Made by a program: the position numbers and the translations under genes. DNA of 26,125 nt from Actinomycetota bacterium (GTDB lineage Bacteria > Actinomycetota > Actinomycetes > Nanopelagicales > Nanopelagicaceae): the NCBI GenBank assembly GCA_009704555.1, contig WLDY01000001.1, forward strand, positions 1-26,125, read 5' to 3'. Below, piece after piece: positions 5,194 to 8,061 of the stretch (position 1 is its first letter; the number at the start of each line of letters is the position of its first letter). The notes under the pieces are model-generated. The model was given only the letters and a program-made list of their open reading frames with translations. It had not been told where the DNA came from and made no database searches.

Positions 5194-5460
5194 CTACTTG
5201 CCGGAGGTCGGTTCCAATTGCTCGATGGAGAGTAGGTTCCCGTTTATCTCACGGAGCGCGATGGAGAGCGGCTTCTCGTGAACGTTGGTCTCAACCAACG
5301 GGCCTACATATTCCAAGAGCCCTTCACCGAGCTGGGAATAGTACGCATTGATCTGACGAGCCCGCTTTGCCGCGTAAAGGACGAGTGAGTACTTCGAGCC
5401 AGTCTTCTCTAAGAGATCATCGATCGGAGGATTGGTGATTCCTTCAGACTTCAACTCCAT
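5194..5460 (-). CDS. rpoZ: RNA polymerase omega subunit
   Basis: [11 protein letters not shown]...[35 protein letters not shown]...[11 protein letters not shown], the typical actinobacterial RpoZ sequence; follows gmk. Confidence 0.97.
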
Positions 5461-5513
5461 AGTGCATCTACCTTCTTCTACTCGTCATGTACTCGAACCA
5501 AGCGACTCGCGTT

Positions 5514-5555: not shown

Positions 5556-6461
5556 CTATGAGGTCGCTAAGGCTACCAGCCTCGATACGACCTGAGCGAC
5601 CTCAGAATTGACCAGCACGTGATCGAATTCCTTCGCGGCAGCCATCTCTTCCTGGGCAATGGCTAATCGCTCTCGAATCCGTTCATCGCTGTCGCTGCCT
5701 CGACCCCTGATCCTGCCTTCTAATTCCTCCCAAGATGGAGGCGAGATGAAGACCAAAACCGCCTCCGGATGGACTTCCTTCACCTGACGCGCCCCTTGGA
5801 GCTCGATCTCCAGTAGAACATGCTTTCCTGCAAGACGATGGCGTTGAACATCCTCTTCCAATGTGCCATAGAGGTTGCCGGCGAATTCGGCCCATTCCAT
5901 GAATTCGTTATTGGCGATACGTGCTTCGAATTCGGCACGTGTTACGAAGTGATAGTGAACCCCATCTTGCTCGCCATCACGTGGAGGTCTAGTCGTGACG
6001 CTAATACTGAGGAAGAAGTCTTCGAATCGTGCGACTTCTTGCGTGATCGTACTTTTGCCCACGCCACCAGGGCCGGAGATGACAAAGAGGCGACCATAGA
6101 AAGCGCTGGACATAGCGCCAAGAGTACTGAGCATCTTGGATGGGATGTTTCTCTCCACCAGTGTCAAGAGCTCTCTTCGCTGTCTGACTCCGAGACCAGC
6201 GATACGCCGCGTCCGCGAGATTCCTACCTTCTCCATCAAGCTCTCGGCGCGAAGCGGTCCCATCTGCGGCAGCGAAGTGAGAAGTTCGATCACTCGCATC
6301 CGTTGTGCGGCGGCGCTACTTGAATCGAAAATCTCTCGCATGGAGAGTGAACCCTCCTTGAGTGCGCTCTTTATCTTCGAGCGCTCCCGGCGGGCTGCGA
6401 TTGCAAGCTCAGCGTTTCGTCGGCGCGTCTGGGGATCAAGAGAGGGTGGCGGATTCTTCAT
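5556..6461 (-). CDS. gmk: Single 301-aa ORF: N-terminal actinobacterial integration host factor (mIHF/sIHF-like, about aa 1-104) fused to guanylate kinase (about aa 117-301)
   Basis: N-terminal part AARRER...LK...MRVIELLTSLPQMGPLRAESLMEKVGISRTRRIAGLG..Q matches the sIHF/mIHF pattern. C-terminal part has P-loop SGPGGVGKST, SVTTRPPRDGEQDGVHYHFV, YGT, LEIELQGARQV, FISPPSWEELEGR. The junction was read codon by codon and has no stop. Confidence 0.9.
   Translation of the reverse strand: MKNPPPSLDPQTRRRNAELAIAARRERSKIKSALKEGSLSMREIFDSSSAAAQRMRVIELLTSLPQMGPLRAESLMEKVGISRTRRIAGLGVRQRRELLTLVERNIPSKMLSTLGAMSSAFYGRLFVISGPGGVGKSTITQEVARFEDFFLSISVTTRPPRDGEQDGVHYHFVTRAEFEARIANNEFMEWAEFAGNLYGTLEEDVQRHRLAGKHVLLEIELQGARQVKEVHPEAVLVFISPPSWEELEGRIRGRGSDSDERIRERLAIAQEEMAAAKEFDHVLVNSEVAQVVSRLVALATS
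6121..6126 (-). promoter_or_regulatory. Candidate internal -10 hexamer TACTCT, 7 nt before ATG 6113 (Met117, start of the Gmk part)
   Basis: Minus strand reads cag-TACTCT-tggcgct-ATG TCC AGC. Fits TANNNT at leaderless spacing; no functional data. Confidence 0.35.
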
Positions 6462-6464
6462 GGA

Positions 6465-7145
6465 TCAGCCCAGCGAACGAATAATCGAATCTGCAGCTTC
6501 TGCAGGAAAAGGTGCGGCCGTGATCGGGCGACCGATCACCAAGTAGTCACTGCCAGCAATAAGAGCCTCTTTCGGGGTCATGACGCGGCGTTGATCGTCA
6601 CCGGCTGACTCAATTCTGATCCCAGGAGTGATGATCTTCATGGTCGGCAATCCTCGTTTGAGGACCTCCACCTCATGCGGCGAGGCGACAAGGGCTCTCG
6701 CACCACCTTCAAGCGCGGTACGAGACAAACTCAAGGCTAGATCCGTTAGTCGAGAATTCACACCCATGGAATCGAGCGCACCTTGATCGAGGGATGTCAG
6801 CACCGTGACAGCCGCGACCATCGTGCCAGGTAAGTTCTCCGTAGCCGCCCTAATCATCTCTACCCCGCCCGAAGCGTGGACCGTGAGAATGAAGGGATCG
6901 AGTTCGGCGACAGCTGCCGCCGCCTTCCCTACCGTATTTGGGATGTCGTGGAGCTTGAGATCCAGGAAGATCTTCAGGTCCATCTCGCGCTTTATCTCTC
7001 TCAACGTGGAGAGCCCATGTCGGAGGTAGAACTCAAGTCCGAACTTGTAGATTCCGATGTACGGTCTCGTAGCCTCGATCAGCGATCTTGCTTTTGCTAG
7101 ATCAGTGGTATCGACAGCAAGGATGATTGGCGAATCAACGTTCAT
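6465..7145 (-). CDS. pyrF: Orotidine-5'-phosphate decarboxylase, 226 aa
   Basis: ILAVD, FLDLKLHDIPNTV, TVHASGG, VTVLTS, TPGIR, VIGRPIT. Start set at ATG 7145 (MNVDSPIILAVD), overlapping the pyrD stop by 11 nt. Confidence 0.96.
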   Translation of the reverse strand: MNVDSPIILAVDTTDLAKARSLIEATRPYIGIYKFGLEFYLRHGLSTLREIKREMDLKIFLDLKLHDIPNTVGKAAAAVAELDPFILTVHASGGVEMIRAATENLPGTMVAAVTVLTSLDQGALDSMGVNSRLTDLALSLSRTALEGGARALVASPHEVEVLKRGLPTMKIITPGIRIESAGDDQRRVMTPKEALIAGSDYLVIGRPITAAPFPAEAADSIIRSLG

Positions 7146-8061
7146 GAGCGACGCCAACCGCATCTGAGAACCTTGTGAAGCCATGGTCTTGGATCAATGT
7201 CGAAAGACGATCTCGAATCTCAATCACACTCATCGGATTTCCGAAGGATGCAGTACCGATCGAGACCGCATCTGCACCCGCAGCCACGAGTTCCAGCGCA
7301 TCTTCGCCGTGAACCACGCCACCCATCCCCACAATGGCAACCGATGGGAATCTCTCCCGAACTTGAAAGATCGCCCTAACGGCCACTGGACGAATCGCGG
7401 GTCCAGAGAGCCCACCAGTCTTGCCTGCTAAGTGTGGCCGCAAAGTCTTCGGATTTATGACCATGCCAAGCAAGGTGTTGATGAGGGCAAGGCCATCTGC
7501 ACCCGCTTCGATGACCTCCCTAGCGATGGCGACGATATCGGTCACGTCGGGTGAGAGCTTGGCGATGATGGGGAACTCACCACCAAGGTTGATTCGAACT
7601 GCCTCTATCGCGGCACGGGCAGTCACTGGATCGCAAGAGAAGACCTGACCACGATTAGCCACATTCGGACAGGAGATATTGACCTCGATCGCCTTGATTC
7701 CTCGTTGTCCTCGGAGACGGCGAGCAAGGGCACCATACTCATCGACCGTCTCACCTGCGATTGAAACGATCACATCACATGATTGGGTTTGAAGCCACGC
7801 CAGATCTTCTTCGATGAAGGCATCGATGCCCGGTCCTTGCAATCCGATCGAGTTGAGCATCCCCGAGGGAGTTTCGGCCATACGGGGTGTGGGTCGTCCG
7901 GAGCGCGCTTTGAGCATGATCGACTTTGTCACCACCGCACCCAACTCCTTGAGCGGGAAGAACTGCGAGAGCTCCTTCCCTGATGCGGCGCAACCACTTG
8001 CCGTGAATATGGGATTCTTGAAGCGCACCCCAGCGATCGTGGTCGAGAAGTCGAGGGTCAC
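7135..8061 (-). CDS. pyrD: Dihydroorotate dehydrogenase, class 1B catalytic subunit
   Basis: KNPIFTASG, NSIGLQGPG, EVNISCPN (class 1 Cys), KLSPD, INTLLG, GGLSG; no N-terminal membrane anchor; adjacent to pyrK. Confidence 0.95.
   Translation of the reverse strand: MTLDFSTTIAGVRFKNPIFTASGCAASGKELSQFFPLKELGAVVTKSIMLKARSGRPTPRMAETPSGMLNSIGLQGPGIDAFIEEDLAWLQTQSCDVIVSIAGETVDEYGALARRLRGQRGIKAIEVNISCPNVANRGQVFSCDPVTARAAIEAVRINLGGEFPIIAKLSPDVTDIVAIAREVIEAGADGLALINTLLGMVINPKTLRPHLAGKTGGLSGPAIRPVAVRAIFQVRERFPSVAIVGMGGVVHGEDALELVAAGADAVSIGTASFGNPMSVIEIRDRLSTLIQDHGFTRFSDAVGVAHER

Follow-up and report, generated by a model that had tools for sequence, protein, structure and literature searches.

In mycobacteria, mIHF is an essential and abundant organiser of the chromosome, and guanylate kinase (Gmk) carries out an essential step of GTP synthesis and is a target of (p)ppGpp. 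In sIHF, the 'lid' is the main contact with the DNA backbone, and the protein, which touches DNA through two surfaces, may act as a bridge between DNA segments (PMC3627587). A derivative of sIHF carrying eGFP at the C-terminus complemented a Streptomyces sIHF mutant (PMC3627587), so cargo at this end is compatible with IHF function. GMK is reported to be a dimer in which the contact between lid and C-tail at the interface sets the sensitivity to (p)ppGpp; in the inhibited enzyme of the Firmicutes/Actinobacteria type, the C-tail keeps the lid open, which allows (p)ppGpp to bind the active site (PMC6783271). The gene order in Mycobacterium tuberculosis is mihF-gmk-rpoZ (PMC6155035).

The window analysed here is a stretch of 26,125 nucleotides from a metagenome-assembled genome of 0.86 Mb that is 60% complete. 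In this window, mihF and gmk occupy a single uninterrupted frame of 301 codons on the minus strand, from the ATG at 6461 to the stop at 5556-5558. The first-pass annotation of the sequence had described this frame and a junction without a stop; the junction reads exactly as quoted there, and the three codons that it had located are correctly placed: GAG at 6153-6155 is E103, AGA at 6150-6152 is R104 and AAG at 6135-6137 is K109. The features of the locus are as follows.

5194..5460, minus strand: rpoZ, the downstream operon gene (PF01192).
5556..6461, minus strand: fused mihF::gmk ORF, 301 aa plus stop; the ORF call, both domains and independent contigs agree.
5565..6095, minus strand: guanylate kinase domain, residues 123-299 (TIGR03263).
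6051..6077, minus strand: P-loop SGPGGVGKS, residues 129-137; S129, G130, P131, G133, V134, G135 and K136 invariant.
6096..6149, minus strand: linker NIPSKMLSTLGAMSSAFY, residues 105-122 (18 residues), with the genus-specific motif K109-x-L111-S112-T113-L114.
6111..6113, minus strand: ATG of M117, probable former gmk start codon, from alignment with standalone Gmk starts.
6162..6446, minus strand: actinobacterial IHF (mIHF/sIHF) domain, residues 6-100, long N-terminal helix and H2TH core (NF041260).
6189..6224, minus strand: 'lid' GISRTRRIAGLG, residues 80-91; R85, R86, G89, L90 and G91 invariant in 26 fused homologues.
6246..6272, minus strand: H2TH motif LPQMGPLRA, residues 64-72; P65, G68 and R71 invariant in 26 fused homologues.
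6465..7184, minus strand: pyrF, OMP decarboxylase (PF00215, 151 bits).

The fusion is flanked by pyrF and rpoZ, the neighbours named in the first-pass annotation, and its ATG lies 3 nt from the pyrF stop. All genes of the region are on the minus strand and tightly packed in the order pyrC-carA-carB-pyrK-pyrD-pyrF-[mihF::gmk]-rpoZ-coaBC-metK-priA-def, the canonical actinobacterial array. The architecture is PF22525 followed by PF00625, with the IHF domain N-terminal, in the slot between pyrF and rpoZ.

The IHF domain is recognized by the NCBIfam model actino_IHF (NF041260) over residues 6-100 with 90.2 bits (cut-off 60; profile positions 3-99 of 102), and the genome-level profile search gives 93.6 bits at 6162-6446. 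The Pfam model H2TH_5 (PF22525) matches residues 34-99 with 62.6 bits (cut-off 27). The domain aligns with residues 4-96 of sIHF (4ITQ, E 1e-15) and residues 8-103 of mIHF (6TOB). In the AlphaFold2 model, helices are found at residues 10-36, 57-62, 69-79 and 92-104, with a block-mean pLDDT of 82-93 over residues 10-104; the fold comprises the long N-terminal helix, the H2TH core and, separating helices 4 and 5, the basic lid. The conserved patterns are RRxxGLG in the lid and PxxGxxR in the H2TH motif, both of which correspond to elements through which sIHF contacts DNA (PMC3627587), and Q94, just past the lid, is also invariant in the 26 fused homologues. The domain does not end at the standalone size of the family (about 105 aa) and continues in frame into Gmk. 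NCBI assigns NF041260 the type 'equivalog_domain', which is used for models of one domain within a longer protein.

The kinase part is matched by the equivalog model guanyl_kin (TIGR03263) over residues 123-299 with 223.8 bits (cut-off 160.45) and by Guanylate_kin (PF00625) over residues 123-295 with 168 bits. The Gmk structures 3TAU and 1ZNW are matched in the PDB at E 2e-43, and Foldseek gives TM values by hit of at least 0.9 to several Swiss-Prot Gmk entries or models. The block-mean pLDDT of this domain is 85-96. Residues S129-K136, S152, S154, T156, T157, R158, R161, E164, Y170, E189, Y198, G199, T200, R250, R254 and R265 are invariant among the 26 fused homologues. They include the P-loop, the GMP-binding motif S/T-T-R-x-P-R...E...Y, the Y-G-T motif and the lid arginines, where the assignment of residues to motifs is our own reading against the alignments with PDB Gmk structures. 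The domain is predicted to be catalytically complete.

The two domains are joined by a linker whose residues 107-119 have a pLDDT below 50. In 18 genus-type sequences, K109, L111, S112 and Y122 are invariant, and the motif K109-x-L111-S112-(T)-L114 is a fixed feature of the window's genus. Linker and IHF domain are equally conserved there, each with a mean pairwise identity of 59%. Synonymous codon differences among the species show that the linker is under selection as a peptide. The conservation of KxLSTL exceeds what a passive tether needs. Linker length is about 8-12 aa in other genera versus about 18-20 aa in the window's genus, and is different again in Microbacterium and Tropheryma.

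The junction retains recognizable ends of both partners. In the window's genus the IHF part ends in '...LLELVEKN', which resembles '...LLELMKAN' directly before the stop codon in the split genus g18. Some 11 additional residues separate this end from M/V117-S-x-x-F-Y-G-R-L, the counterpart in the alignment of 'MSKRGKL' and 'MSRGRL' at the N-termini of standalone Gmk. M117 itself falls on the initiator Met of the standalone enzyme in split genera (g18, MSKRGKLIVLSGP; genome G020, MSRGRLIVLSGP), and its ATG is probably the former gmk start codon. The simplest reading of these alignments is that a former spacer of about 33 nt is now read through into the old gmk start.

The open frame was examined in independent data. 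At least 14 DNA runs, produced by at least 10 freshwater or lake metagenome studies, contain the window stretch. A contig of a different study covers 6061-6238, and the junction check that the first-pass annotation had proposed gives no stop and zero differences there. No indel was found inside the ORF in the four runs compared; the sole indel, at 5499, is intergenic. A contig from an RNA library runs through rpoZ and the Gmk domain into the linker and stops at 6154 with adapter sequence; its differences within the linker (6096, 6102, 6108, 6114, 6117 and 6123) are all at third codon positions. This RNA contig stops short of a full-length transcript.

The protein search proposed in the first-pass annotation, for sequences carrying both domains, gave more than 120 homologues of 299-308 aa with 68-100% identity, all with PF22525 and PF00625, one of them titled 'MAG: guanylate kinase [Candidatus Nanopelagicaceae bacterium]'. 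In about a dozen genera, the fused frame persists even where identity has dropped to about 46-55%. Within the genus, NG86 gives dN/dS values of about 0.10-0.13 (IHF), 0.04-0.35 (linker) and 0.014-0.057 (Gmk); these values are imprecise, rough upper-level indications because every available species pair has a saturated dS (above 1.3). Purifying selection acts on each of the three segments.

The distribution of the fusion was studied in an order sample composed of the window genome and 150 relatives, all relatives belonging to one family (f1, Nanopelagicaceae-like). The genes are fused in about 130 of the 151 genomes, including more than 50 that consist of a single contig. The uninterrupted frame is present in genera g1 (the window's own), g2, g4, g5, g6, g8, g16 and g17; separate genes are present in genera g7, g9, g10 and g18 (17 genomes), and the state is uniform within each genus. 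A second sample of relatives adds g3, g11 and g13 as fused and g12 and g15 as split. In split genera the genes are in different frames, and the distance from the mihF stop to the gmk start ranges from -1 (a 1-nt overlap) to about 45 nt; the boundary in genome G016 reads 'gatTAATGcgc'. In G020 (g14) both genes are in the same frame with TAG-TAG in between. Outside the family, the genes are separate in every genome of the class in which both were found. This bears out the earlier statement that mihF and gmk are normally separate neighbours, as does the mihF-gmk-rpoZ order of M. tuberculosis (PMC6155035). Of the genomes used here and in the phylum sample below, G030, G264, G501, G224, G483, G178 and G296 are flagged as unpublished; they count only among genomes with separate genes and carry no specific claim.

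It had also been suggested that a second mihF be looked for. Five closed or near-closed fused relatives contain exactly one actino_IHF and one gmk match each, both inside the fused frame, which is thus their only mihF and their only gmk. The window's own 60%-complete genome likewise has one match of each kind above the cut-off. No second mihF or gmk was found in these six genomes, and in all of them the fused gene is the sole housekeeping gmk.

The fused arrangement recurs elsewhere in the phylum. In 56 of 400 sampled actinobacterial genomes, mihF and gmk share a frame with only one to three stops between them, so the boundary would easily be lost. Four of the 400, from family f23, which includes Microbacterium, have no stop between the genes at all. 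Taken with the recurrence described next, these counts point to a labile mihF/gmk boundary in evolution and to fusion as a common state.

Whether the fusion was already in databases had been left undecided in the first-pass annotation; it is. RefSeq, UniProt and JGI hold such proteins under the name 'guanylate kinase' with both Pfam domains precomputed. Beyond the family, the two-domain search extends to Microbacterium, Tropheryma whipplei and probably Leifsonia. Microbacterium has hundreds of 'guanylate kinase' entries of 302-303 aa with both domains (RefSeq, UniProt). The fusion of T. whipplei is WP_011102530.1 (304 aa), for which Swiss-Prot has 193 aa from an internal start. The Gmk of Leifsonia xyli (Swiss-Prot Q6AF82, 254 aa) aligns structurally from query residue 53; the entry therefore begins inside the IHF domain, and L. 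xyli probably carries the fusion too. In an exhaustive search of representative sequences, full-length fusions made up about a dozen clusters at 50% identity. No published description of an IHF-Gmk fusion was found in the literature searched, with subscription journals outside the coverage. The fusion is genuine and apparently unstudied; it is not rare, being common and unlabelled in public genomes.

Its history within the family was reconstructed from a tree of IHF, Gmk, PyrF and RpoZ. The split lineages G020, G013/G021 and G015/G018 are basal in the family. A starred clade contains 18 fused genomes together with the split genomes G016 (g10) and G024 (g18), which group with the window's genus with a starred support of 99/96. 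Monophyly of all fused members of the family is rejected by the AU test (p = 0.029). The independent CarB tree (1091 columns) agrees in its backbone and again has the starred clade of 20 genomes, and its branch nesting G016 and G024 among fused lineages is supported at only 93/91. A single origin of the fusion within the family is disfavoured by the AU test and the trees, and the state probably changed more than once, which is likely rather than proven. One gain with re-splitting and two or three separate gains would be about equally parsimonious on these trees. The fusions of Microbacterium, Tropheryma and Leifsonia belong to different families and are therefore separate events.

Genome streamlining was considered as a sufficient cause and rejected: split and fused genera are alike in genome size (1.2-2.2 Mb), and Microbacterium is fused at 3.4-4.0 Mb.

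The IHF part of the fused proteins is more diverged than its standalone counterparts. Fused proteins mostly score 56-95 bits with actino_IHF versus 107-139 bits for standalone ones: 90-94 for the window, 83 for G008, 93 for G022, 91-95 for two more cluster representatives, 57-80 for four clusters outside the family, 66 for Microbacterium and 56 for Tropheryma. The exceptions are the fused genera g5 and g17, which keep 119-134 bits. The ratio of IHF to Gmk divergence is 2.3 in the window's genus, 1.4 in other fused genera and 1.5 in Microbacterium versus 1.05-1.2 in split lineages; neither the scores nor the ratios are phylogenetically independent between fused and split proteins. Because of this greater divergence, the IHF part may have changed its role or its expression level in fused lineages. 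A relaxed or altered constraint fits the divergence, and we see lower expression of IHF, once tied to the enzyme, as a possible cause.

The locus probably encodes a single bifunctional, tethered polypeptide, in which the two domains work side by side and which arose by loss of the boundary between mihF and gmk. As adjacent, co-directional genes of one operon, the two would have lost the stop and start that separated them. The product would be one chain of about 33 kDa with an intact IHF domain, a flexible 18-residue linker, made partly of the former spacer and partly of the Gmk N-terminus, and a Gmk domain. The domains would most likely act side by side and not as one machine. Equimolar synthesis and tethering of Gmk to DNA-bound IHF would be the consequences, and the fusion may have been kept because it does no harm or brings a mild benefit, in that the two parts are co-expressed in equimolar amounts and one translation start is saved. 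Three elements of this proposal are inferred: that one chain is translated, that its domains act independently and that a lost boundary gave rise to it. The divergence of the IHF part and the strong conservation of the linker motif count against it. Unlike Gmk, mIHF usually reaches a very high abundance, and a forced 1:1 synthesis therefore needs explaining.

A selected coupling of DNA binding with guanine-nucleotide metabolism would be a different reason for keeping the fusion, and we regard it as unlikely. Two forms of it can be imagined, both raised in outline in the first-pass annotation: Gmk dimerization could create a two-headed, DNA-bridging IHF whose geometry is altered by GMP, ATP or (p)ppGpp, or Gmk held on the nucleoid could supply GDP/GTP locally. 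The persistence of the fusion over about a dozen genera, its repeated origin and the conservation of the linker motif at the peptide level would permit such a role. So would the reported dimeric state of GMK, with its lid/C-tail contact that sets (p)ppGpp sensitivity (PMC6783271), the two DNA-contact surfaces of sIHF and its possible bridging of DNA (PMC3627587), the presence of a full-length RelA/SpoT homologue (RSH) in the window's genus and the position of rpoZ, a subunit of a GTP-consuming machine, as the next gene. However, AlphaFold2, run with a 26-sequence alignment, gives two confident domains (mean pLDDT 86.6) with a pTM of 0.59 and the low-confidence linker noted above, so no fixed packing or contact between the domains is predicted. 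The variation of linker length and sequence by lineage argues against one conserved coupling geometry, and the presence of split sister genera, with a state that probably changed more than once in the family, suggests near-neutrality. A complex prediction with two full-length copies returned a score of 0.00, 'no answer', and counts neither way.

The most specific proposal of this kind is a long shot, drawn by analogy. If Gmk dimerizes here as in Staphylococcus aureus and Escherichia coli, the fusion could form a two-headed DNA bridge; head spacing and nucleoid compaction might then track the open/closed cycle of Gmk, and thus GMP, ATP and (p)ppGpp, with the KxLSTL linker as transmission element.

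The long ORF might instead be mostly nominal, with Gmk also or mainly produced from an internal start at M117, or with the linker cleaved, so that separate IHF and Gmk are kept at different levels. We consider this improbable. It would resolve the mismatch in abundance between a nucleoid protein and an enzyme, M117 coincides with the standalone Gmk start, codon 117 is ATG (4) or GTG (4) across all 8 species of the genus, residue 117 is only M or V in the 18 sequences, and database starts conflict (193 versus 304 aa in Tropheryma, 254 aa in Leifsonia). Yet no Shine-Dalgarno site at usable spacing precedes M117 in the window, and in three species a GGAGG lies only 1 nt from the GTG, again an unusable spacing; dual initiation is therefore not supported. 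The four GTG codons represent only about two independent lineages, no conserved Met is found in the linkers of other fused genera, and the linker upstream of M117 is conserved as a peptide through synonymous changes, which argues for its translation and its importance.

A sequencing or assembly error, or a fresh stop loss in one genome, both raised in the first-pass annotation and suggested by a 60%-complete metagenome-assembled source and by several junction codons one base away from a stop, has next to no chance of explaining the frame, which independent contigs reproduce at the junction, which recurs in at least 14 runs, and which more than 120 homologues and over 50 closed genomes preserve, to about 46-55% identity and with dN/dS well below 1 in all segments.

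A single tethered polypeptide of this kind is a natural, recurrent and long-lived covalent link between mIHF and Gmk, and it raises the question of whether nucleoid architecture senses guanine-nucleotide status. A second question is how cells tolerate a structural protein and an enzyme at equal copy number. Cultured Microbacterium strains have the same architecture, and both questions can be taken to the bench there. The under-annotation is systematic: 'guanylate kinase' is the sole name given to hundreds of these proteins, and the Swiss-Prot entries of Tropheryma and Leifsonia use internal starts, so these genomes seem to lack mIHF.

Compared with mIHF (Rv1388, 6TOB) and sIHF (SCO1480, 4ITQ), the window protein shares the full-length match of residues 6-100, the H2TH motif and the RRxxGLG lid, and it occupies the same genomic slot, after pyrF and before gmk/rpoZ. 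mIHF and sIHF are standalone proteins of about 105 aa, of a family marked by nucleoid association and by binding to dsDNA that is not sequence-specific, whereas the window protein runs on into Gmk and is a putative DNA binder. Its IHF domain scores 90 bits versus 107-139 bits for standalone relatives with the actino_IHF model, and its rate of evolution within the genus is about 2.3 times that of the attached Gmk.

Compared with bacterial Gmk (M. tuberculosis 1ZNW; S. aureus 4QRH/2J41; 3TAU), the kinase domain has an equivalog-level score, shares the P-loop, GMP-site and lid residues, and is 45-55% identical to the solved structures; the window protein differs by an N-terminal extension of 122 residues, made up of the IHF domain and the linker.

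The closest counterparts in architecture are the fusions of Microbacterium, Tropheryma and Leifsonia, which have the same two domains in the same order, about 300 aa and the same operon position, and are likewise named only 'guanylate kinase'. They are only 35-43% identical to the window protein and their linkers are unrelated to it. A longer linker bearing the KxLSTL motif is particular to the window's genus.

Relative to Gmk, the IHF domain has evolved faster in fused than in split lineages. At mihF/gmk loci L004-L041, the IHF:Gmk relative evolutionary rate is 1.4-2.3 in fused lineages, as against 1.05-1.2 in split ones. At the same loci, the scores of fused-lineage IHF domains against the NCBIfam actino_IHF profile NF041260 are below those of split ones, although these score and rate comparisons are not phylogenetically independent and the fused genera g5 and g17 keep high scores. 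The two domains are joined by a short linker:

Window 6096-6149, minus strand: linker, predicted to be disordered.

Its motif K-x-L-S-T-L is invariant across 18 genus-type sequences, and the codons for this motif vary synonymously.

In G020, a genome of the split genus g14 near the base of the family tree, mihF and gmk share a frame and are separated by two adjacent TAG codons (L018:1813-1818). An ATG lies 27 nt beyond the double TAG, with the translation MSRGRLIVLSGP. The locus of this basal family member looks either one step short of the fusion or split again after it.

The start of the fused gene of Tropheryma whipplei (P0307/P0308) differs between databases: the product has 304 aa in RefSeq and in strain Twist versus 193 aa in Swiss-Prot KGUA. 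The Leifsonia xyli entry (Swiss-Prot Q6AF82) has 254 aa, with an annotated start falling within the IHF domain. Because of such conflicting start annotations, both genomes seem to lack mIHF. Four proteins (P0121, P0131, P0143 and P0145; 1102-1403 aa) that were among the top-scoring representatives in the search for fusions each carry 3-7 separate guanylate-kinase-like stretches.

Elsewhere in the operon, the listed pyrD ORF and pyrF start share 50 nt (window 7135-7184, minus strand), and the real pyrF start may be a codon further downstream; several further operon genes overlap by 4-30 nt. In two relatives with closed or near-closed genomes, a single in-frame stop interrupts the carB match: TGA in G023:C1:760114-763377 and TAG in G011:C2:450045-453305. 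A split carB, a sequencing error or recoding could account for this.

The genus of the window is so far represented solely by metagenome-assembled genomes, whose labels are Actinomycetota or Ca. Nanopelagicaceae. Nanopelagicales are characterised as 'low GC' in the abstract of PMC12817590, whereas the G+C content of the window is higher, at 51-57% over its whole length (1-26125).
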